Source of the DNA: a virus | Lineage: Duplodnaviria > Caudoviricetes | Virus record (IMG/VR): IMGVR_UViG_3300005200_000008 | Span: 25,931-89,930 of that record | Reading direction: 5' to 3' (one strand) | DNA: 64,000 nt | Shown: in pieces, positions 9,616 to 62,890 of the stretch | Layout of the letters: every line of letters begins with the position of its first letter | Position numbering within the stretch: the stretch's first letter is position 1 | The notes under the pieces: generated by a model | Told to the model about the DNA's origin: nothing | Seen by the model: the letters and a program-made list of their open reading frames with translations, nothing else | The model's database searches: none | Made by a program: the position numbers and the translations under genes

Positions 9616-10244
9616 TCCACATCTCCCATTTCAAATACCAACGGGCATTCCTTACGGCACTGCTCGTACAAAGGTATCATCAGCCTCCGCATATCGGGAT
9701 GGGCCGCCTTGCTGATAGCCCTCAGCCTGAATATGTGCCGCCATTCCCTAAAGTTCGCTTTAACGACAATCTCCGTTTTTACGCAGTTTGGAAGTACTGA
9801 TCTGGCCATTTGTGGCGTCCAGTTATTTGTCTTTAACAAATGGAGATAAAACTCTTCTGCATTACGACAACTTTCCTCCCATACCCCGCCGCTCGGAAGA
9901 TCACCGCCAGGCTGAATAAACGTTAATTCATTGCCGAATTTATCCTGACTGTAATTGCAGTACCTTGTGCTTTCCTGCACGAAGGAACAAAGCCGGTGCC
10001 TTACAATTTCATGGGTAATTCCGCGATCCGTAACAAGCCTCACCGTCATGGAACCGAATTCAATAACTGCTTCGTGACCGCGCCCGATAATCATTTTTAT
10101 AAACTTCTCATAACTGTCAAGGGTCATATGATCTTCGCTTTTATACGCGGTACGGCCGGCTTCTTCAATAAGCCGGCATTCATTACGCCATTCTTCTTCC
10201 GTGGCAGGAAACAGTATTTTATGGCTTTGCTTGACAATCTTCAT
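9612..10244 (-). CDS. thyX: FAD-dependent thymidylate synthase
   Basis: GHEAVIEF, RGITHEIVRHRLCSFVQESTRY, ARSVLP, AHPDMR. Confidence 0.92.
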   Translation of the reverse strand: MKIVKQSHKILFPATEEEWRNECRLIEEAGRTAYKSEDHMTLDSYEKFIKMIIGRGHEAVIEFGSMTVRLVTDRGITHEIVRHRLCSFVQESTRYCNYSQDKFGNELTFIQPGGDLPSGGVWEESCRNAEEFYLHLLKTNNWTPQMARSVLPNCVKTEIVVKANFREWRHIFRLRAISKAAHPDMRRLMIPLYEQCRKECPLVFEMGDVE

Positions 10245-10547
10245 AATTTAACTCCCTTTGCTATCTAAATAATAACTTCCGGCTCTCGCCCTTAATTTTC
10301 AATTTATTTGATTAAATCCCAACGTACAGGACGAAGCCGGCAACCGGGTATCCATATTTTTTTCGGTGCATCATATACCTGAATTTTTTGTATTCCTCAT
10401 ATGCGGGTTTTGATAATTTATACCATGACGATTTTGAAATACTGTCTTGTTCCAAAACCTCCCTGTATAAATTTGGATAGTGTTTTTTCGCCATTCTATG
10501 AATATCGTCGTTGAATATTATTTGCACCGAACAAGTTTTTTTCTCTT

Positions 10548-18291: not shown

Positions 18292-18642
18292 CTAAATAAC
18301 TTCCGGTCTGCGGTTGGCGATATCGAATGTATTCGCGTTTTTTACCAGTTCTTTGAGATATTGCGGATATTTTTTCTTTGTCAGTTTGTGATTAACAAGC
18401 CATAACTCAAACGCCGCGTAATGGAGGTATCGCCGGGCATCTTTTATCGCTTCAAATGACAGGTTCTCCAGGGCGAACGCATAGCGTTCTTTGGCGGCGA
18501 TTACGTCACGGAACCTTCGTTTGCAGTTTCTTTGGTTTGTCTGGTCTTTGGCAAAGGAAGATGAAACCTCCGTTTTCCCGGAGAGGTCTCTCATTAAAGA
18601 ATCTATTTCGTCTTGGGATAATTGCTCTGCAAAAGCCGCCAT
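18292..18642 (-). CDS. protein with N-terminal FliM-like CheY-binding peptide
   Basis: begins MAAFAEQLSQDEIDSLM; compare [10 protein letters not shown] in the FliM at 58221. Confidence 0.6.
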   Translation of the reverse strand: MAAFAEQLSQDEIDSLMRDLSGKTEVSSSFAKDQTNQRNCKRRFRDVIAAKERYAFALENLSFEAIKDARRYLHYAAFELWLVNHKLTKKKYPQYLKELVKNANTFDIANRRPEVI

Positions 18643-20680: not shown

Positions 20681-20809
20681 TACTAATGATTTCCGGGTGA
20701 ATCAGACTCGTGATAGATATTTGGGAAAAAATTTTTATTTTTTTTCTGTGTTAGCTGCAATTCTACCAACCTTCCTAAAAAGTTTCACGGGAAACCGGAA
20801 GTTATTAGT

Positions 20810-54846: not shown

Positions 54847-55351
54847 AGATAAATAAAAAATTAATTATGCGGCAGAATATGAACCGTCTGTTTTGACTGC
54901 ATCACAAAATAAAAAGACATATAATCGGTTTCCTTATCTTCGGCGAATTCGGCATTAACGATATTTTTGGGGTATAAGTAGAAACTGTTGTAGGCTGAAA
55001 TCGTATTTTGAAACATAATTCTCTGGCTTTCAATTTTTACTTTATTAAAAATACCGTCCATTTCGGTATTATCGTTTCCTGAAAAACTTAAATGCACTCT
55101 GAAACCTTTATTCTTTTTTATCCAGTCTATGAACATACCGTACACGTCTTTAGGCGATACCGCAGTATATTCGATTTTTTCCTGTAACGGTTTATCGTTT
55201 CGCGGTTGTTCGTTAAACACCAACATATAAAAATAGGTCTCGATTTTAAGGAATAGATAAAATCTTTTAAGCCGATATCATACGTGAAATAAACCTGTCG
55301 GAAGTACTTAATGCAGGGTTGCGGCAGTTATGCGGTTCCCTACACACCTCG

Positions 55352-55384
55352 AAAGCCGGGTATTTATGATGCCCGGCTTTTTTT
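55352..55384 (+). terminator. intrinsic terminator ending a short transcript
   Basis: AAAGCCGGGTAT...ATGCCCGGCTTTTTTT, about 45 nt after the CGGAAGT motif at 55299. Confidence 0.7.
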
Positions 55385-55430
55385 GAAAAAAAAAGAGCTA
55401 ATGCCGAAAAGTATCGGAAGTCCTTATTAG

Positions 55431-55495
55431 TGGGATGCTGAAGAACGGGGTTACTTAATTTGGGTTTAACATTCCCCGCTTGCTGCTCGCTCCCA
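55431..55495 (+). ncRNA. minimal Y-like RNA upstream of Ro60
   Basis: GGGA-T-GCTGAAG ... CTCGC-TCCC bulged helix plus inner CGGGG/CCCCG stem. Confidence 0.6.
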
Positions 55496-55556
55496 AATTT
55501 TAATCGCCCCCCCCCCCGCAATAGCGGGTGCGGTCGAAAGTATCAAGGAGTGAATT

Positions 55557-56924
55557 ATGGCCTCTACGAATACGAGGGTGCGCAATACCCGTAAAACGCA
55601 TGAAGGCGGCCCGGCTTCGATAATCAAGCCGTTGGAGCAACTTAAACGTTCCGTTATGTCGTGCTTGTTGTGGGAAGATTCTTTTTACGAGGACGGCGTA
55701 TCCATTGCCGACCGCGTAAAGGAACTCGTCGGGAAAGTGTCCGAGGAGGAAGCGCGGCAGGTTCTTTTCGATGCGAAGTTTAAGTCGAAACTCCGGCATA
55801 TGCCGTTGTATCTGCTGACTATTCTGGCCGAAAAGAAATGGCTGAAAAAGGACGACGTAGCCAGGGTCTGCACCCGCGTTGATGACATGACCAAACTTTT
55901 GTCGCTGTATTGGAAGGACGGCAAAAAACCGTTAAGCCACCAGTTGATTAAGGGCTTGGCTCAGGCAATCCCTACGTTTGACGAATACAAACTGGCGAAG
56001 TATAACCGCTCCAAGGCGGTGAAACTCAGGGACGTGTTCCGCATTGCAAGGCCGAAGCCGGCAAACGAAGCGCAGTCTGCCCTCTGGAAACGGGTCGTCG
56101 CCGATGAATTGAAAGTTCCTGATACGTGGGAAGTCGCCATTAGCGCCTGCGGCAGTGATAACCAGAAGAAGGCTCAGGAATTTACCCGGCTGCTGACTGA
56201 AAAAGTTCGTGACGAGGAAACCGGCAAAGAGTTCAACAAACTCGGTGATCTGGCTTTTCTTCGCAACATACGGAAGATGAAGGAAGTCGGCGTTGAGGAA
56301 GATTTGATTCGTAAATCTTTTGAAGACCGGAAATGGGGGTGGATTATCCCTTACCAGTTCATTACCGCCGCTTCGCACAATCCGGTTTTTGAGGACGTAC
56401 TGGAAAACGCGATGTACAAATGCCTGGGCGAACAGGAACCTATTGAAGATAAGGCCGCCCTGCTGGTTGACGTGTCAGGTTCGATGGACAGCAAAATTTC
56501 CGACAAGTCGGAAGTCAAGCGTTACGATGTCGCTATCAGCCTTGCTATTCTGCTCCGCGAAATCTGCAAGGACGTGAAACTGTATACTTTTGACAATGAA
56601 CTTCATGTTATCCCGCCACGGCGCGGTTTCGCCCTGCGTGATACGATACGCAAGCAGGTAGGCGGCGGGACGAGTATGTGGAGCGCGGCAAGAGGCGCCG
56701 CGAAAGATCGGCGCAACAGGGTAATGGTGATTATCACCGACGAGCAGACGCAGGATAGCGGCAGGTATTCAGATGCCAATGCCGATCTGCTGGTAATCAT
56801 CAACGTCGCTTCTTATGAGAACGGCGTAGGCTACGAAAAAGGTTGTGTTCACATCAATTCTTGGTCTGACAATATCGTAGATTATCTGCGGGAACTTTTG
56901 AAAAATATGGAATTTGTAGTTTAA
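55557..56924 (+). CDS. Ro60/TROVE-domain RNA-binding protein with vWA domain
   Basis: KTHEGG, LWEDSFYE, LRHMP, TWEV..S, LVDVSGSM MIDAS, GGTSM, ITDEQ. Confidence 0.93.
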   Translation: MASTNTRVRNTRKTHEGGPASIIKPLEQLKRSVMSCLLWEDSFYEDGVSIADRVKELVGKVSEEEARQVLFDAKFKSKLRHMPLYLLTILAEKKWLKKDDVARVCTRVDDMTKLLSLYWKDGKKPLSHQLIKGLAQAIPTFDEYKLAKYNRSKAVKLRDVFRIARPKPANEAQSALWKRVVADELKVPDTWEVAISACGSDNQKKAQEFTRLLTEKVRDEETGKEFNKLGDLAFLRNIRKMKEVGVEEDLIRKSFEDRKWGWIIPYQFITAASHNPVFEDVLENAMYKCLGEQEPIEDKAALLVDVSGSMDSKISDKSEVKRYDVAISLAILLREICKDVKLYTFDNELHVIPPRRGFALRDTIRKQVGGGTSMWSAARGAAKDRRNRVMVIITDEQTQDSGRYSDANADLLVIINVASYENGVGYEKGCVHINSWSDNIVDYLRELLKNMEFVV

Positions 56925-56990
56925 ACTTGGGAGGGGATTTAAAAATAAATAAATTTTTTATTGGGAGGTAATTGAAACTGTAACGTTTTG

Positions 56991-57124
56991 TGGTAGGTAG
57001 GCAAATGGTAAAGCCGAAGGTAATAAAAAGAGCCTGTGCGTTTCTTGCTCCTGAAAAGGATGTCGTAGTGTAGGAATTCTTAATCAGGAACCTTTGTTTG
57101 ATGGTTCAAGTCCATCCCTACCAA
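56991..57124 (+). ncRNA. tRNA-Y chimera 1 (68-nt insert in place of the anticodon loop)
   Basis: TGGTAGG/CCTACCA acceptor, D and T arms, AAGGT/ACCTT stem enclosing CTTGC-TCC...GGA-T-GTCGTAG. Confidence 0.7.
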
Positions 57125-57455
57125 AAAAGGCTTTTGGTTAAAAAATAGCAAGTTGAGCCTGAAAGGTTAATAACCTTTTAAATCAATTCCGGTGAACGTG
57201 TGGTTCAGCCTACACTTGGTGTTATTGACTTGGCTATCTAACCCGCACTACTGGAGTGCGGGTATGTCTTGAATACATCGGGGAGTAGGGGTTAATCGGG
57301 TAGGTATAAGTTACGGTGCGTTGGAGTTCGGAGCGTGCAAGGTTTGAATCACTACACCCCGCCAGCGATGAGTATGCCAATACCGAGCTAAATCCGGCAG
57401 TCAAGGCAGTAAGAGTAATCTTACTGCCTTGGCTGTACTAGACAATTCGTTAATT

Positions 57456-57525
57456 AGGGTGCTGACAAAGCAGGGTTTCATATTCATTTGGAGAATAACC
57501 AGATCCCTGTTTGACACTTGCCCCT
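57456..57525 (+). ncRNA. minimal Y-like RNA
   Basis: AGGG-T-GCTGAC ... CTTGC-CCCT plus GCAGGG/CCCTGT stem. Confidence 0.55.
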
Positions 57526-57537
57526 ATTTATATATTA

Positions 57538-57640
57538 GGGAGTGTTGCCTAGTTGGTAAGGCAATCTTTTTTCAATCCTTACTCTCGCAAGAGATGTCGG
57601 CGAAAAGAGATACATATTAGTTCAAATCTAATCACTCCCG
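57538..57640 (+). ncRNA. tRNA-Y chimera 2
   Basis: GGGAGTG/CACTCCC acceptor; insert CTTAC-TCTC-GCAA-GAGA-T-GTCGGCG. Confidence 0.7.
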
Positions 57641-57641
57641 T

Positions 57642-57754
57642 AGGGTGCTGTAGGCGCCGGTTACATAGGTAAATAATTTTTTTTGAAAAAATTTAGCGGG
57701 TTCAAGTCCCGCAAGCCCTTCGGGGTCAGCCGGTGCCGCCTCTCGCCCCTTTTT
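57642..57754 (+). ncRNA. YrlA-like RNA
   Basis: AGGG-T-GCTGTAG ... CTCGC-CCCT-TTTT; internal T arm GCGGG-TTCAAGT-CCCGC and UUCG-closed stem. Confidence 0.65.
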
Positions 57755-57760
57755 ACATGG

Positions 57761-57890
57761 GAAAGCGTAGCTCAGTTGGTAGAGCAATAGCAAAAATGTT
57801 CTTTCGTTGCTTTTTACTCCTACGGGATGTTGTAGACGAGAGTTACTTAATCAGGGCTGTGGGTCATTGGTTCGAGTCCAATCGTTTTCC
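57761..57890 (+). ncRNA. tRNA-Y chimera 3
   Basis: GAAAGCG/CGTTTTC acceptor, canonical D and T arms; insert TTTAC-TCC-TACG-GGA-T-GTTGTAG. Confidence 0.7.
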
Positions 57891-58122
57891 TGAAGGAGTT
57901 TTATTATGAAAATTACGAAAGCGCAGAACCCATACAATGTAAAAATCGGGCAGGTATGGGCAGACAGGGATTCTTCCCGTAAAAATACGTTTGTAATTAA
58001 AAGGTTGCTTATTGATAAAGACGGGCTGGGATTCGCTCTAGTATTCCGTGAAAAAACTAGAGCAAAAACATGGATTAGGCTTAATCGGTTTAACAAGTAT
58101 TTTAAAAAATAGATTTTTTTAT

Positions 58123-58194
58123 GCGTTATAGGTGTTGATGGATACACGCCGGTCTTCCAAACCGGAGTAAACGGATCGTTACCGTTATGACGCT
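58123..58194 (+). tRNA. tRNA-Gly(TCC)
   Basis: GCGTTAT/ATGACGC, CCGGT-CTTCCAA-ACCGG, U73; T loop ATCGTTA. Confidence 0.8.
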
Positions 58195-58220
58195 TGTAGG
58201 AGAGGGGCCTATTTAATTAA

Positions 58221-59246
58221 ATGACAGAAGTTTTAAGCCAGGACGAAATCGATCAGTTGCTTACTGCCATATGCGCAGGCAATGACGAGCCAGAAGATCA
58301 TCGCCCCGCAAGAGACAGTAGAAAAATAAAAATCTATGATTTTAGGCGCCCTGATAAATTTTCAAAAGAACAGATCAGAACAATCTCTATAATGCACGAA
58401 ACTTTTGCCCGTCTGACAACTACCACTCTTTCAACGCAACTCCGCAGTATGGTTCATGTCCATGTCGCTTCGGTAGACCAATTAACCTACGAGGAGTTTA
58501 TCCGTTCAATACCGACCCCCACGACGTTGGCTATAATCAATTTAGACCCGCTCAGAGGGAATGCCATTCTTGAAATTGATCCCGCCATAACTTTTTCCAT
58601 TATCGACCGAATTTGCGGCGGCCGTGGAGAAGGAAATAAATGCCAGCATGAAATGACCGACATCGAGCAGTCGCTCATGGAAGGGATAATTATTCGACTA
58701 TTGGCAGATGTGAGGGAGGCTTGGACTACCGTTATCGACCTTCGCCCCCGCCTTGGGCAGATCGATACGAACCCGCAGTTCGCACAGATTGTACCCCCTA
58801 CCGAAATGGTCGTCCTTGTTACCCTGGAAACAAAAGTGGGCGATGTGGAAGGGCTGATGAACATTTGCATACCCTACATAGCAATCGAGTCTATAATGGG
58901 TAAATTATCCGCTACTTACTGGTATCACGGCAACAGAGCGGGGCGCGACGAGAATACGGTTGTTGACATCATTAACCATATAGACGAAATGAGTACCACT
59001 ATAGTTGCCGAAGTCGGCAGGGTTGACGTTCCTGTCAGAGACATACTTGCCATTAAGCCCGGCGATGTTTTCAAACTGCCTGTTAAGCAGAATTCCGATT
59101 TACTGGTTAGGGTTGAAGGCAGGCCGAAGTTTGCCTGCCGTCCCGGTATATCGGGGGCTAATAAGGCGATGCAAATCGTAAATAAAATAAATTACTTTCA
59201 AGGAGACGACTATGGCGAACAGCAAGAAGACGGATGCGGCGAATAA
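58221..59246 (+). CDS. fliM: flagellar motor switch protein FliM
   Basis: [51 protein letters not shown]-terminal SPOA domain. Confidence 0.95.
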
Positions 59247-59577
59247 TGCTGAAAAGGTACAGAATATACAATTCCCCAGTTTAATACCCGGCCGGCGCGG
59301 AGATGATGCCGACCGTAGCAATATCGGCCTTCTCATGGATGTCCCTATGGAGATGTCCGTAGAACTTGGGCGTACCCGCAAATTGGTGAAAGAAATCCTT
59401 GCAATGGGGGAAGGCACAATCATCGAATTGGACAAACTTGCCGGAGAGCCTGTTGACGTTCTTGTAAACCAGAGGCTTGTAGCCAAAGGCGAGGTTGTGG
59501 TTATTGACGAGAATTTCGGAGTTCGCATTACCGAAATTGTTTCCCCCGGTTTGCTCCAGCCTGCGGTTTCCGAATAG
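59212..59577 (+). CDS. fliN: flagellar motor switch protein FliN (FliY C-terminal-like)
   Basis: [15 protein letters not shown]...[17 protein letters not shown]...[18 protein letters not shown]. Confidence 0.93.
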
Positions 59578-59585
59578 GAGAAGAA

Positions 59586-60800
59586 ATGGTTTATTACGCC
59601 ATTATTATATCTATTGCCGGTCTTTTGATAGCGTTTTTTATAGCCAGTTATGTTATCGGGCGTAAAAAAAATAAGAATGAAAAACTTCCAGAACAGGATA
59701 AAATAGAGCCGCTTTCAATAACTAAAGACCTTATAAGCGAACAGCCGAAAAATGCTGCCCAACTTATTAGAACCTGGCTTGTGGACAAATCACAAAGCGG
59801 TTGTATGGAATATACCGCTATTCAAAAAGCGGCTATATTTTTTATTACCGTCGGTATTGAGTATTCCTCAATGATATTCCAATATATGCGCGAAGATGAA
59901 ATTGAAACCGTAGTATTTGAAATAACAAGAATTGAATCTGTCGGTTATAATCAGAAATGCGCGATATTAAACGAATTCAATGAATTAATGGAAGCGGGTA
60001 ATCTTGTTTCTAACGGCGGTATTGAGTATGCCCGGGAACTGTTGGAAAAATCGTTAGGCTGTCAAAAAGCAATAGATATTCTTAATCGTTTAACATCCGG
60101 TTTGCAGATACGCCCTTTTGACTTTATACGCCGCGCCGACCCTTCGTACCTTATAAATTTTATCCAGCAGGAACACCCGCAGATTATAGCCCTTATTCTT
60201 TCGCATTTGGAACCGAGCAAGGCTTCTAAAATTTTGGAAAATTTACCGCACGAAGTACAAAGCGATGTCGCACGGCGCATTGCGATAATGGACAGAACAA
60301 GCCCTGAAACATTGCGGGAAATAGAGCGGGTACTCGAAAGGAAACTTTCAACCCTGTCAAGCGAAGATTACGCTACCGTCGGCGGCGTGGAAAGCATTGT
60401 GGAAATCCTCAATTTGGTTGATCGCGCTTCGGAGAAGCAGATTATTGAATCGTTAGAAGACGAAGACCCCGAACTTGCCGAAGAAATTAAAAAACGGATG
60501 TTTGTGTTTGAAGACATTATTATGCTGGACGATCAAGCTGTTCAGAAGTTTATGCGGGAAGTGGATACGCCGGAACTTGCCAAAGCCTTGAAAACAGTCG
60601 ATTCGGAAGTGCAAAACAAAATATTCAACAACATGAGCAAAAGCGCCGCCGCTTCGCTCAGGGAAGATATAGAGCATATGGGGCCTGTTCGCTTAAAAGA
60701 CATTGAAGAAGTCCAACAGAAAATTGTCTCAATAATCAGGCATTTGGAAGACGAAGGCGAGATTGTTATTTTAAGAGCCGGCGAAGACGAACTTGTATAA
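59586..60800 (+). CDS. fliG: FliG with N-terminal TM helix and FliF-C-terminal-like segment
   Basis: QKAAIF, GGIEYARELL, EHPQIIALILSHL, GGVESIVEIL, MFVFEDI, GPVRLKD; N-terminal YYAIIISIAGLLIAFFIA and PKNAAQLIRTWL. Confidence 0.92.
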   Translation: MVYYAIIISIAGLLIAFFIASYVIGRKKNKNEKLPEQDKIEPLSITKDLISEQPKNAAQLIRTWLVDKSQSGCMEYTAIQKAAIFFITVGIEYSSMIFQYMREDEIETVVFEITRIESVGYNQKCAILNEFNELMEAGNLVSNGGIEYARELLEKSLGCQKAIDILNRLTSGLQIRPFDFIRRADPSYLINFIQQEHPQIIALILSHLEPSKASKILENLPHEVQSDVARRIAIMDRTSPETLREIERVLERKLSTLSSEDYATVGGVESIVEILNLVDRASEKQIIESLEDEDPELAEEIKKRMFVFEDIIMLDDQAVQKFMREVDTPELAKALKTVDSEVQNKIFNNMSKSAAASLREDIEHMGPVRLKDIEEVQQKIVSIIRHLEDEGEIVILRAGEDELV

Positions 60801-60909
60801 ACGTTCAAAAATTTTCAACGGTTTATCGGCTTTTCCGTGATTTGATCGGAAGTCCTTATTAATGGCTATAATTTTCTCTTTAATCAAAAGTATCGGAGTT
60901 AATAGGTAA

Positions 60910-61677
60910 ATGGATAAAATCGGCCCTTGTAAAAAATGCGGAGGGACTAATTATTTCGCAAAACACGTCGGCAAAGAAGACGGTTATTTGAACGACGAAA
61001 GCTATAAAATAAAATGTCGTTCCTGCGGTCATATAGTCGTGTCCGAAGTCTCGGCCGAAAATGCTATTAAAGAATGGAACACATGGGAAACCGGGCCTGA
61101 ACTGCCGCCAGACCCGAACATACCAATATCCCCTGACGGTAAATTTCAAATATACAGGGTGCAAGTAAAGCGTGAAGGCGTACACAAAATTATATACGTC
61201 GTGCCGTGTACGGCAGATTCTACCGGCCACGGCGATACGCTTCACGACGATTTGCAAGAAGCGATAAAGGTAGCAGATTTTAACCGCAAAAAAGCCGAAG
61301 AAAGGGAAAAGAGGGAAGCCGAAGAAAAAATCAACAGGGTGAAGCGCATAGAAGAACAGAAAAAACGCGAGTATATGTACGGTTTCGGCGACGATCTTCC
61401 CCCTATCAGGAAAGGGAAAATTATACAGCATATGCAGAAGGTATGGAATTTTACGGAAGCCTCGATAAACAAAACCATGACCATGAAGGATTTCATTCAT
61501 TTTGTATACCTTCAAGGCAATCCTGAAATGAAAATAATAACGGAAAAATATGATGCCCGGGGGCATGAACGGGCGGAGCCGAAACTTACTTATTGCATAA
61601 ACCGAACAGAGGTCGGAAAAATCGCTTACGATTATTTGCAATACCTTATTAAAAACAAAATAAAGGTAGAGGGCTGA
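60910..61677 (+). CDS. hypothetical protein with Lar-like Zn finger
   Basis: PCKKCGG...KCRSCG...AIKEWN. Confidence 0.5.
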   Translation: MDKIGPCKKCGGTNYFAKHVGKEDGYLNDESYKIKCRSCGHIVVSEVSAENAIKEWNTWETGPELPPDPNIPISPDGKFQIYRVQVKREGVHKIIYVVPCTADSTGHGDTLHDDLQEAIKVADFNRKKAEEREKREAEEKINRVKRIEEQKKREYMYGFGDDLPPIRKGKIIQHMQKVWNFTEASINKTMTMKDFIHFVYLQGNPEMKIITEKYDARGHERAEPKLTYCINRTEVGKIAYDYLQYLIKNKIKVEG

Positions 61678-61679
61678 TT

Positions 61680-62297
61680 TTGAATTTGCCGGGTTCCGCG
61701 CTTTCAGGCGGCAAGTCAACAAGCCGCGAGCGCGTCAAGGATGATTTTTATGCTACCCCGATAGAAGCGACATTGGCGTTACTTGATCATGAAACTTTTA
61801 CAGGTTCTATATTGGAACCCGCCTGCGGCCAGGGGCATATTGTTAAAGCGCTGAAAATGAGATACCCGGGCGCGATGATCCGCAGTTCAGATTTGGTATT
61901 AAGGGATGATGTTTTTAATTTATCAAATACGCAGGAATACGGTTTATTTTTAGAAGCCGATTTTTTAGGGAATACGTTTTTTACCGGCTGCATTGATAAC
62001 GTTATAACAAACCCGCCGTTTTCGCTTGCTCAGTCGTTTATTGAAAAGGCTCTTGATGTCGCAAGAATGAAAGTTGCCATGTTCTGTAAAATCCAACTTC
62101 TCGAAGGCGTAGCGAGAAAAGATATGTTTGAGAATACGCCGCTTAAAACGGTTTATGTTTTCAGCAAGCGGGTTAATCCTTTAAGAAACGGGGAAGAACT
62201 TGACGAGAACGGAAAACCCTGGGCGAGTACCATGTGCTTCGCTTGGTTCGTATGGGATAAGGAATACAAACACAAGCCCGTAATCGAATGGATTTAA
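61680..62297 (+). CDS. phage N6-adenine DNA methyltransferase-like protein
   Basis: DDFYATP, ILEPACGQGH, VITNPPF, FAWFVW; TTG start. Confidence 0.8.
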   Translation: MNLPGSALSGGKSTSRERVKDDFYATPIEATLALLDHETFTGSILEPACGQGHIVKALKMRYPGAMIRSSDLVLRDDVFNLSNTQEYGLFLEADFLGNTFFTGCIDNVITNPPFSLAQSFIEKALDVARMKVAMFCKIQLLEGVARKDMFENTPLKTVYVFSKRVNPLRNGEELDENGKPWASTMCFAWFVWDKEYKHKPVIEWI

Positions 62298-62304
62298 TGT
62301 AAAG

Positions 62305-62829
62305 ATGAAGCAGGCAATTATCAACTATGCAAAAAATGAAAAGTCCGATCATTTTATAACGCCTGCTTACGCGATAACGCCTCTGCTCCCTTACATACCG
62401 AAGCATTGGAAGATCTGGGAATGTACCGATACGAAAGGCGACAGCCTTATACCGGATATACTGCGGGAGCGTGGGTGCGACGTTGTATCTACGGGAATGG
62501 ACAAATTGAATTTTCTTTTTGACAAGCCCGATTTCGATTTTGACTGCATTATTACAAACCCGCCTTATACGTTAAAAGACGAATTTATCAAACAGTGTTA
62601 CCGGTATAAAAAGCCCTGGGCGATGCTCATGCCTTTGACTACTTTGGAAGGCGTGGAAAGGGGTAAGTGGTTCGGTTTTTACGGTATAGAACTTTTGGTT
62701 TTTGACAAGCGGGTTGAATTTGTGGGAGGGGGCGCGTGTTGGTTTTCTACAGGCTGGTTCTGCCATAATATTTTGCCGGAAAAACTTATGTTTGTCAACC
62801 TTGAAAAGCCAAAAAAAGAAAGGCTTTAG
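62305..62829 (+). CDS. phage adenine methyltransferase-like protein
   Basis: DHFITP, IWECTD, IITNPPY. Confidence 0.75.
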   Translation: MKQAIINYAKNEKSDHFITPAYAITPLLPYIPKHWKIWECTDTKGDSLIPDILRERGCDVVSTGMDKLNFLFDKPDFDFDCIITNPPYTLKDEFIKQCYRYKKPWAMLMPLTTLEGVERGKWFGFYGIELLVFDKRVEFVGGGACWFSTGWFCHNILPEKLMFVNLEKPKKERL

Positions 62830-62890
62830 AATTTGGAAAATTATGTGATGTGTTTCAGCTTTTTTATTTTTTAATCGGAAGTCCTTATGT

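Follow-up and report, generated by a model that had tools for sequence, protein, structure and literature searches.

A phage contig encodes a rebuilt flagellar switch: a fliM-fliN-fliG cassette that is a genuine phage module of host origin, not host contamination, and that has been kept under purifying selection. The contig belongs to a large phage of termite-gut-type spirochaetes. To our knowledge, flagellar switch proteins have been regarded as strictly cellular. Judging from the encoded proteins, the phage probably alters the swimming and steering of the cells that it infects.

The window, by which we mean the whole stretch of DNA that was analyzed, is the final 64 kb of an 89.9-kb IMG/VR virus record. 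The cassette (positions 58221-60800) consists of three neighboring open reading frames on the plus strand, and a Shine-Dalgarno-like sequence (AGGAG or GGAGA) lies close 5' of each of the three starts. The original prediction described these as intact genes for FliM, FliN, and FliG, and both the reading frames and the Pfam matches bear this out. The features that we refer to are as follows.

18292-18642, minus strand: candidate accessory gene (116 amino acids), with an N-terminus that resembles the CheY-P-binding peptide of FliM (EQLSQDEIDSLM)
55415-55432, plus strand: phage promoter-like motif CGGAAGTccttattagt, which precedes Ro60 and is the closest upstream copy to the cassette
55557-56924, upstream of the cassette: Ro60/TROVE gene (phrog_850)
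57538-57640 and 57761-57890, upstream of the cassette: tRNA-like Rfam matches
58123-58194, upstream of the cassette: tRNA-Gly
58221-59246, plus strand: fliM (341 amino acids), encoding a full-length FliM
59212-59577, plus strand: fliN (121 amino acids), which overlaps fliM by 35 nt
59586-60800, plus strand: fliG reading frame (404 amino acids)
59586-59807, plus strand: mini-FliF part of the fliG reading frame (residues 1-74), with a transmembrane helix and a copy of the FliF tail
59808-60800, plus strand: FliG core (residues 75-404), with the Pfam domains FliG_N, FliG_M, and FliG_C
60847-60875, plus strand: promoter-like motif CGGAAGTccttattaatggcTATAAT, which lies 47 nt past the fliG stop codon and heads the Lar-like gene
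60910-61677: Lar-like gene (PHROG match), the first gene after the cassette
61680-62829, downstream of the cassette: two methyltransferase genes (phrog_799)
Downstream of the cassette: nucleotidyltransferase gene (phrog_388)

The surroundings are those of a tailed phage (Caudoviricetes). The window encodes a tail sheath, a terminase, a tail protein, a PmgG-like head protein, RtcB, Ro60, methyltransferases, and a nucleotidyltransferase, and a portal homologue is encoded in the remainder of the record. Phage genes flank the cassette on both sides, with no cellular housekeeping genes around it. The reported setting of the cassette (a tRNA array, methyltransferases, and a CGGAAGT motif at 60847) was recovered with matches to Rfam, to PHROG, and to the motif. 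CGGAAGT occurs 30 times in the window, while 8.4 occurrences are expected (0 of 100 shuffles attained 30), and its copies share an extended consensus. No copy of the promoter-like motif was found from 56509 to fliM. Ro60, the Y/tRNA array, and fliM-fliN-fliG may form a single transcription unit that starts at the 55415 motif. When we compared 23 host flagellar proteins to the whole 89.9-kb record with tblastn, the only matches were to FliM, the C-terminal domain of FliY, the tail of FliF, and FliG. Thus, as had been claimed, genes for export, rod, stator, or filament were not found, and searches of the DNA in hand for MotA, flagellin, PilZ, or response-regulator domains found none either; the record is about 42% complete, so these absences apply solely to that DNA.

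The phage FliM is 67-72% identical to the FliM of termite-gut Treponema/Termitinemataceae. It matches the entire middle-domain profile (PF02154, positions 1-192 of 192, E = 3e-79, 265.8 bits with a cut-off of 27) and has a C-terminal SpoA domain (FliMN_C, E = 4e-18, residues 253-323). Residues 5-14 are predicted from sequence to be the N-terminal CheY-P-binding peptide (LSQxEIDxLL type). Of the residues that are invariant in the hosts, the phage protein retains all 16 in the N-peptide, 145 of the 162 in the middle domain, and 16 of the 24 in the C-terminal domain. The GGxG loop, which contacts the middle domain of FliG, is present (GGRGEG aligns to the host's GGTGEG).

A similar peptide may begin the 116-amino-acid protein encoded at 18292-18642. 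With BLASTP, this protein matched the N-terminus of the window's FliM weakly and over the short motif alone (E = 0.004), and it matched a protein from another phage, L011, that carries the FliM N-peptide (E = 3e-5). It has no Pfam family, and its matches in the ESM Atlas were all below threshold. A CheY-peptide-like N-terminus recurs on separate small proteins in both the window phage and L011.

The phage FliN corresponds to just the C-terminal quarter of the hosts' FliY. Over residues 272-366 of the 374-residue host FliY, the identity is 76%, and the remainder of FliY has no match in the phage protein, whose only Pfam family is FliMN_C (PF01052, E = 1e-26, residues 41-110 of 121). It is therefore a SpoA-only FliN, without the N-terminal CheY-binding peptide and the CheC/CheX-like middle region of FliY. 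Conservation of the SpoA domain is high (dN/dS of 0.08), also in the GEVVVID stretch. The claim that the CheC-like phosphatase domain of FliY is missing holds for the phage protein; as to the host, its FliY does contain the N-peptide, but the region in question is itself only a weak match to CheX (E = 5e-4, residues 101-162).

The FliG core is 77-78% identical to host FliG across comparisons (78% to that of Leadbettera azotonutricia for residues 75-404). All three Pfam domains are present (FliG_N, PF14842, E = 4e-38; FliG_M, PF14841, E = 1e-32; FliG_C, PF01706, E = 6e-45), and the top Foldseek matches of its predicted structure were FliG chains of the Salmonella C-ring. The EHPQ motif of FliG_M, the MFVFED motif, and the K, ED, and PVR positions of the torque helix are retained. 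Among the charged residues of the torque helix that we compared (K264, R281, D288, D289, and R297 of E. coli), the equivalent of R281, which we take to be the main stator-contacting arginine, is a serine in the window's copy (MSKSAA, versus MSKRAA in the hosts and the other phage copies).

The fliG reading frame begins with a miniature piece of FliF. A transmembrane helix (about residues 2-25) comes first; basic residues and a short linker follow, and then a copy of the FliF tail (about residues 36-67, which include AAQLIRTWL). This fusion was absent from the original prediction and is what matters most for the mechanism. Residues 36-68 align to the very end of Leadbettera FliF (residues 543-575 of 575, E = 8e-7 with BLASTP), and the extension as a whole is collinear with the second transmembrane helix (TM2) and tail of FliF. 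The two helices are similarly hydrophobic (Kyte-Doolittle means over 19 residues of 2.68 for FliG and 2.80 for FliF TM2). In four phage FliGs, the best FliF match was to its extreme C-terminus (E = 8e-7, 2e-7, 9e-4, and 1e-3). Against the PDB, the extension matched two sequences, both of them FliF (12dr_A and 5tdy_A), with weak E-values, and an alignment with an engineered Vibrio fusion (8z4d) spans its FliF/FliG junction (residues 42-403 of the phage protein). When we searched with the extension alone, a word-index search returned just the query, and phmmer found one marginal match among 1.84 billion representatives. The 74-residue stretch is not a FliF, which has two transmembrane helices flanking periplasmic ring-building domains: no YscJ_FliF domain was found in the fliG reading frame (with Pfam) or in the whole record (with tblastn).

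We also modeled the tail (residues 30-74) with FliG_N (residues 75-185). The predicted complex scored 0.52, compared to 0.02 for the best control, which is weak support: in the benchmark for this score, 58 of 80 solved complexes and 2 of 110 mismatches reached the mark, and 7 of the 80 and both mismatches did so at 0.60 or below. At least 78% of contacts agreed between runs, and the partner's pLDDT was at least 62. Similar complexes (5TDY and 5WUJ) have been solved and the prediction is possibly based on memory, so we take it as a weak sign of likeness rather than of binding. The AlphaFold2 model of the full fusion is modest (mean pLDDT of 63, pTM of 0.30).

Rearranged versions of the module are found in at least four other phage contigs, L003/L012, L013, L065, and L009 (FliG plus FliM-FliN). 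L009 (IMGVR_UViG_3300010167_000010) is a complete 329-kb genome with terminal repeats. In all of these contigs, FliM is fused to FliN and its C-terminal domain is degenerate, so the window's copy is the sole version with three separate genes. The other versions keep the CheY peptide, and their FliG is often extended at the C-terminus by about 110 amino acids. In the clade of L009 and L065, the order is fliG and then fliM-fliN, the transmembrane helix is absent, and the CheY-P docking peptide is doubled. In L003, the cassette adjoins the portal and head protease genes. L003, L013, L065, and L009 all keep the torque-helix arginine; its change to serine is unique to the window's copy. A remnant of the FliF tail was detected on FliG in four of the five phage versions tested; BLASTP gave no alignment between the N-terminus of the L009 FliG and FliF, although by eye it looks like a degraded FliF tail.

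A metagenome scan with the junction between the tail and FliG_N returned 80 loci, among which only L012, L013, and L065 are real phage-type fusions. In most of the 80, ordinary bacterial fliF and fliG genes share a frame and the alignment runs on past the stop codon. Scans of IMG/VR with FliG (as a single sequence or an alignment) returned nothing; these patterns were too strict and missed L009, even though it is in IMG/VR. A scan of IMG/VR with the terminase gave no match.

Could the cassette be host DNA that was joined to a phage contig during assembly, as has been argued for the "fliM" of Microcystis phage MaAM05/PhiMa05? It lies just 3.2 kb from the end of the contig, and curated "phage" records with fliM or fliG do contain bacterial operons (PMC13623518). 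We nevertheless consider a chimera or contamination extremely unlikely, because the composition and codon usage are phage-like, the genes have been rebuilt, and independent contigs carry the same architecture. The GC content at third codon positions is 0.41-0.53 for the cassette, compared to 0.57-0.69 for the host orthologues (and 0.11-0.13 for the same genes in a phage with 32% GC), and the codon usage (RSCU) of the cassette correlates at 0.79 with the phage genes but at 0.49 with the host orthologues. In treponemes, fliM-fliY is in the flgE-motAB-fliL-...-flhA operon and fliF-fliG is in the flgBC-fliE-...-fliHIJ operon; the host operons that we examined thus agree with the earlier statement that these pairs are separate, and none of them has the gene order or the fusions of the cassette. 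The description of a trimmed, reassembled set also fits: two host operons have been joined and FliY has been cut to its SpoA domain. The cassette is flanked on either side by phage genes and by the phage-specific CGGAAGT motif, and the contigs with the same architecture come from other samples and include the complete 329-kb phage. An assembly chimera, which was named at the outset as something that would refute the prediction, is contradicted by all of this.

It is also very unlikely that the cassette is a decaying passenger, that is, a recently captured piece of host DNA that is useless to the phage. The phage copies do sit on long branches, and FliM_C and FliG_N have lost many host-invariant residues. 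Also, their rate of evolution exceeds that of the host copies by a factor of 6 to more than 30 (host FliGs are about 95% identical to each other), and part of this rate could reflect relaxed constraint. However, the reading frames are intact in at least five phage versions, and their composition is fully adjusted to each phage. Between the window phage and L003, the fli genes are the best conserved of the shared genes: FliM is 74% identical and FliG is 65% identical, compared to 49% for the portal, 57% for the terminase, and 50% for RtcB. For the same pair, dN/dS (NG86) is 0.09 for FliG, 0.016 for the N-terminal and middle parts of FliM, and 0.2 for FliG_N; dS is saturated, so these values are akin to upper bounds (for phage-host pairs, dS is saturated or undefined). 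Ratios of 0.02-0.2, well below 1, contradict the relaxed selection that would mark a decaying fragment. Purifying selection is strong on the middle domain of FliM and on the M and C domains of FliG. In phylogenetic trees, three phage FliGs group together (SH-aLRT of 84, with long branches) and the phage FliMs group with a support of 61; neither tree distinguishes a single capture from multiple captures.

What might the phage gain? We lean, by a modest degree, toward a switch complex that is complete in itself and independent of an MS ring, binds CheY-P without the phosphatase domain of FliY, and competes with the host rotor, which would change motility or chemotaxis. The N domain of FliG normally co-folds with the tail of FliF. 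With the tail built in, the phage FliG could do without a free FliF subunit of the MS ring, both for folding and for its place at the inner membrane. Together with FliM and FliN, it could assemble into switch complexes, singly or in arcs, with no coupling to the rod. Such complexes would bind CheY-P without the phosphatase-like domain, and they would be competitors of the host rotors for FliM/FliY, stator units, and FliH-FliI. An infected spirochaete would then reverse at a different frequency, generate a different torque, or assemble its flagella differently. The loss of the torque-helix arginine from this copy fits a non-driving, dominant-negative, or decoy role. [quoted passage not shown] If so, a virus would directly control its host's proton-driven motor and chemotaxis output; this would be the first remodeled flagellar rotor to be encoded by a virus, and a natural test of how little C-ring assembly requires.

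Several observations count against the competing switch complex: every partner interface is kept, so that functioning host motors might just as well incorporate the proteins; the transmembrane helix is missing from the clade of L009 and L065, so membrane anchoring is not universal; the change from arginine to serine is limited to this copy; the model gives weak support to docking of the tail in cis; and the fast evolution of the phage copies could in part be relaxed constraint. FliM and FliN exchange in working motors, and full-length FliF-FliG fusions can be functional. The phage might resupply exchangeable FliM, FliN, and possibly FliG, like an auxiliary metabolic gene, so that the cell swims despite the shutdown of host expression, much as cyanophage psbA replaces a host protein with fast turnover. 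The conservation of the known assembly interfaces and the CheY-P peptide, together with the strong selection just described, agrees with this, but we think it unlikely: it is not obvious where a FliG with a built-in FliF tail and transmembrane helix would fit on an MS ring that has FliF tails of its own to be paired, the N-peptide and CheC-like region of FliY have been deleted, the relatives have a degenerate FliM_C and a FliM fused to FliN, the window's copy has lost the torque-helix arginine, and substitution rates far above the host's suggest a changed function. Less likely still is a use apart from motility, in which a membrane-tethered FliG-FliM-FliN platform would sequester or redirect the ATPase complex of flagellar type III export (FliH-FliI docks on FliN) or would act as a scaffold, at the pole or the membrane, for phage processes. 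The SpoA domain of FliN is indeed well preserved (the GEVVVID stretch, the identity to the host, and the low dN/dS), and the cassette is apart from any chemotaxis gene; but a CheY-P peptide that is fully kept, doubled in one clade, and found again on separate small phage proteins points to chemotaxis signaling, and nothing links the module to phage assembly genes. The functions that were proposed originally were a rewired or jammed motor, titration of CheY-P, a saving of ion motive force, and the exclusion of flagellum-dependent phages; the last of these looks the least likely, because spirochaete flagella are periplasmic.

Selected and rebuilt FliM, FliN, and mini-FliF-FliG proteins in several jumbo-type spirochaete phages would mean that viruses act on the flagellar rotor from inside the cell. 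The natural minimal FliF-FliG fusion could be used to test if the FliF tail alone folds FliG_N and if FliG needs the MS ring for switch complexes. In termite guts and similar ecosystems, spirochaete motility sets the position of the cell, so a phage that controls swimming could influence the ecology of its host as well as its own spread.

Our literature search, whose coverage falls short of all journals, found no paper on phage-encoded FliG/FliM/FliN cassettes, and PHROGs has no family for flagellar switch proteins. Pseudomonas phage proteins Tip and Aqs1 act from inside the cell on PilB, the ATPase of the type IV pilus. What they have in common with the cassette is a cytoplasmic phage factor that is aimed at the motor of a motility organelle; but Tip and Aqs1 are small, unrelated pilus inhibitors, whereas here we find remodeled rotor subunits of the flagellar motor. 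Two records deposited as phages, MW495066 (the "fliM" of Microcystis phage MaAM05/PhiMa05) and MT835480 ("Bacteriophage sp."), contain homologues of FliM/FliN (and FliG). We rejected both as precedents: they contain ordinary bacterial operons (motA-motB-fliL-fliM-fliY and flgC...fliG...fliI...flgE...motAB-fliM) among housekeeping genes. A published comment also argues that the MaAM05/PhiMa05 record is a bacterial fragment (PMC13623518).

Compared to the canonical treponeme FliG, FliM, and FliY (fliF-fliG of Leadbettera azotonutricia, CP001841, and fliM-fliY of termite-gut Treponema), the phage proteins belong to the same families, have the same folds, and keep the CheY peptide, GGxG, EHPQ, and the SpoA domain. 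They differ in that the set joins two operons, FliY is cut to SpoA, FliG gains the TM2 and tail of FliF, an arginine is replaced by serine, and evolution is faster. Spontaneous FliF-FliG fusion mutants of Salmonella exist. An engineered FliF-FliG fusion from Vibrio alginolyticus forms rings (PDB 8z4d/8z4g; PMC10941966). As in these fusions, the C-terminal tail of FliF is covalently joined to the N domain of FliG in the phage protein. However, the known fusions contain a whole ring-forming FliF with two transmembrane helices and build MS rings, whereas the 74-residue extension of the phage FliG comprises just TM2 and the tail; without ring-building periplasmic domains, the protein cannot form an MS ring. 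The extension also aligns to the FliF peptide of 5TDY (Thermotoga maritima), which, like 5WUJ (Helicobacter pylori), is a complex of the FliF tail with FliG_N. In those complexes, the partners are two chains from two genes; in the phage, a linker of about 8 residues connects them within a single polypeptide.

The cassette at window positions 58221-60800 was originally predicted to consist of intact fliM, fliN, and fliG genes lying between a tRNA-type array and methyltransferase genes, and both the reading frames with their Pfam domains and the neighboring genes agree with this. Each gene has an AGGAG/GGAGA ribosome-binding sequence 5' of its start:

58221-59246, + strand: fliM, intact ORF of 341 amino acids; Pfam FliM (3e-79) plus a C-terminal SpoA domain
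59212-59577, + strand: fliN, intact ORF of 121 amino acids; SpoA only (Pfam, 1e-26)
59586-60800, + strand: fliG, intact ORF of 404 amino acids; three Pfam domains (4e-38, 1e-32, and 6e-45)

The first 35 nt of fliN (59212-59246) lie within the end of fliM, in a different frame; in all related phages the two form a single fused ORF. The cassette is flanked by phage genes on both sides. Directly upstream are genes for a PmgG-like head protein and Ro60, then tRNA-like RNAs and tRNA-Gly; RtcB, a tail protein, terminase, and tail sheath are encoded farther upstream. Downstream are a Lar-like protein, two phrog_799 methyltransferases, and a phrog_388 nucleotidyltransferase. The two RNAs that adjoin the Ro60 gene (57538-57640 and 57761-57890, + strand) are tRNA-like with long inserts: they match the Rfam tRNA model, which has 71 positions, over 103 and 130 nt, and ARAGORN did not call either one. 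The source record (an IMG/VR virus record of 89,930 bp, of which the window is the final 64 kb) is about 42% complete according to CheckV, so the phage's full genome is probably around 200 kb. As predicted for the window, no export, rod, stator, or filament genes were found in the record: when 23 host flagellar proteins were compared to the whole record with tblastn, the only matches were to FliM, the C-domain of FliY, the tail of FliF, and FliG. Searches for MotA, flagellin, PilZ, and receiver domains found none.

The motif CGGAAGT is strongly enriched in the window, with 30 matches (8.4 expected) throughout its length, including 55299-62890; examples are at 20796, 26394, 42786, 55415, 60847, and 62876. 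It is part of a longer promoter-like consensus (CGGAAGT-yCTTA-n-TAT...) that immediately precedes many genes in the gene's own orientation, including at 55415, 60847, and 62876. Because an ATG lies only about 8-15 nt 3' of the consensus in several cases (20796 and 62876), the pattern suggests a phage-specific promoter whose transcripts have almost no leader or none at all.

The nearest relatives of the cassette proteins (77-78% identity for the FliG core and 67-72% for FliM) are from treponemes of the termite-gut type: Leadbettera azotonutricia, Treponema primitia, Termitinemataceae, and Hollandina. In these hosts, fliM is followed by fliY (372-374 amino acids) within a flgE-flbD-motAB-fliL-fliM-fliY-fliOPQR-flhBA operon, and fliF is followed by fliG within a separate flgBC-fliE-fliF-fliG-fliHIJ operon. 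Therefore, the cassette was joined from two operons and trimmed, much as had been proposed. The proposed loss of FliY's CheC-like domain also holds: phage FliN aligns only with residues 272-366 of host FliY (76% identity), and it lacks both the CheY-binding N-terminal peptide and the middle region, which is weakly similar to CheX/CheC. T. primitia also has a stand-alone fliM outside the flagellar operons (AEEA01000050; L008:2785-7032), immediately 3' of a gene for a 1010-amino-acid hybrid histidine kinase/response regulator.

The first 74 residues of the phage FliG have no counterpart in host FliG. They begin with a strongly hydrophobic helix (Kyte-Doolittle score of 2.68, versus 2.80 for the second transmembrane helix [TM2] of FliF), followed by GRKKNKNEK and then by a segment matching the final 33 residues of host FliF (543-575 of 575; E = 8e-7). 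The extension is collinear with FliF's TM2 plus tail, so the gene encodes a fusion in which a mini-FliF (TM2 and the FliG-docking tail) precedes a complete FliG; being a fragment, the mini-FliF does not count as a FliF. The corresponding parts of FliG in three other phages match the same FliF terminus (E = 2e-7, 9e-4, and 1e-3). The extension's only matches in the PDB, with weak E-values, were two FliF entries, one of which is the FliF peptide of the FliF_C:FliG_N complex 5TDY. A modelled complex of the tail and FliG_N scored 0.52 (best control, 0.02), which is weak support: among solved complexes, 58 of 80 reached the mark, as did 2 of 110 mismatches, and only 7 of those 80, along with both passing mismatches, reached it with scores of 0.60 or under. 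At least 78% of contacts were shared between model runs, and partner pLDDT was at least 62; since similar complexes had already been solved, the model shows likeness, not binding.

Switch cassettes recur in other phage contigs. L003/L012 and L013 encode a FliM-FliN fusion and then FliG with the transmembrane helix and tail; L065 encodes tail-FliG and then a FliM-FliN fusion; and L009, from a complete genome of 329 kb that has terminal repeats, encodes FliG and then a FliM-FliN fusion. The FliF tail did not match the N terminus of L009's FliG significantly. Of all the versions, the window copy is the closest to the host set and the most complete: fliM, fliN, and fliG are separate, FliM_C is intact, and FliG has both the transmembrane helix and the tail. 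In three of the contigs (L003:11270-11608, L065:9160-9512, and L009:9760-9906), FliG has a C-terminal extension of about 50-110 amino acids that is absent from the window FliG. It is conserved between L003 and L065 and looks like an incomplete repeat of the FliG_C helices; L003 has two Pfam FliG_C stretches. A more distant FliM(N+M)-FliN chimera (L010:9995-10999; IMGVR_UViG_3300001487_000079) is 33-46% identical to FliM and 66% identical to the C-domain of FliY, and there is no FliG within the 32.9 kb of that viral contig.

A CheY-directed theme among these phage proteins is supported by doubled CheY peptides and by small proteins with only a FliM-like N-terminal peptide. The FliM-FliN fusions of the clade without the transmembrane helix (L009:9899-10100 and L065:9509-9760) begin with a second, diverged CheY-binding peptide (YVLDQDDIDDL or ILSQEEIDVL) before the normal one. 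In L011 (IMGVR_UViG_3300006226_001703, classed as a provirus), a 150-amino-acid protein (9923-10375) contains 30 residues of the FliM N terminus (73% identity) followed by a coiled-coil or leucine-zipper-like C terminus. FliG is absent from this 86.6-kb record, whose terminase is 32% identical to the window's. More weakly, a 116-amino-acid ORF in the window (18292-18642, - strand) starts with MAAFAEQLSQDEIDSLM, which is like the CheY-P-binding peptide of FliM; the similarity (E = 0.004 to FliM and 3e-5 to the L011 protein) covers a short motif only, and the remainder has no recognizable family. This protein may be a CheY-P decoy.

We considered whether the cassette might be host DNA joined in an assembly chimera, or a decaying passenger; both are effectively excluded. 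Its GC content at synonymous sites is 0.41-0.53, versus 0.57-0.69 for the host orthologues, and its codon usage correlates at 0.79 with the window's phage genes and at 0.49 with the host orthologues, which argues against host DNA. (In a 32%-GC phage, the same switch genes have GC3 of 0.11-0.13.) A chimera also fits poorly with the recurrence of the architecture on independent contigs. As for decay, L003 comes from a phage that is genuinely related to the window's (portal, 49% identity; terminase, 57%; RtcB, 50%), and the best-conserved genes between them are FliM (74%) and FliG (65%). The original prediction had called for dN/dS, which between these two phages indicates that the genes are not decaying (0.016 for FliM N+M, 0.04 for FliG_C, 0.09 for FliG, and 0.2 for FliG_N; synonymous sites are saturated). 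The phage copies do evolve far faster than host copies: their terminal branches have 0.9-5.6 substitutions per site versus a host median of 0.03, and host FliGs are about 95% identical to each other. Host-invariant residues were lost unevenly. The window copy keeps 16/16 in the CheY peptide of FliM, 145/162 in the FliM middle domain, 57/68 in FliG_M, 92/108 in FliG_C, 66/92 in FliG_N, and 16/24 in FliM_C, so FliG_N and FliM_C drifted the most.

In the flagellar switch, FliG_N co-folds with the FliF tail (5TDY and 5WUJ), FliM_N binds CheY-P, FliM_M and FliG_M bind each other via GGxG and EHPQR, the SpoA domains make up the ring's base and are where FliH docks, and the torque helix of FliG_C contacts MotA. 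Judging from the sequences, the phage set retains all of these known interfaces. Two ties to the host machine would have been removed: dependence on free FliF subunits and the phosphatase-like region of FliY. Our best reading is that a membrane-tethered, self-contained switch complex would form without the MS ring. It could sequester CheY-P, and host rotors could face competition for subunits, stators, or FliH-FliI; the infected cell might show altered reversal behavior, torque, or assembly. This functional interpretation is plausible. The window FliG has Ser at the position equivalent to R281 of E. coli, where its relatives keep Arg, which would fit a non-driving role. If the phage instead resupplied rotor parts and kept the motor running, then we would not expect a FliF tail built into FliG, deleted FliY regions, a fused and degenerated FliM_C in the relatives, or accelerated evolution, so resupply seems unlikely. 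A role in which the cassette acts mainly on the export ATPase, or as a scaffold, is less likely still.

A search of phage databases for fliM and fliG had also been suggested. Other phage contigs do carry cassettes, but the deposited phage records gave only bacterial-looking matches: among 50,697 records searched for FliG, FliM, and FliN, just three groups matched. MT835480 (MT835480.1) carries an entire flagellar operon of bacterial type; short contigs that are labelled "phage" and assigned to Listeria and Salmonella are taken to be host fragments; and Microcystis phage MaAM05 (MW495066.1) has motA-motB-fliL-fliM-fliY among murJ, fabI, and engB. A 2026 comment argues that the MaAM05 record is a bacterial fragment (PMC13623518). 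With ordinary flagellar operons among cellular genes, MT835480.1 and MW495066.1 are probably both bacterial fragments, and including them would distort any count of flagellar genes in phages. PHROGs has no families for FliM, FliN, or FliG. Phage-encoded switch cassettes were not described in any paper that full-text searches turned up; as far as we can tell, they are unpublished.

Overall, the anatomical interpretation of the cassette is supported and extended. The proteins belong to the FliM, FliN, and FliG families, and the whole phage FliG aligns across the FliF/FliG junction of a fusion of these two proteins engineered in Vibrio (8z4d). Trimmed and fused in a phage genome, they form a new variant.
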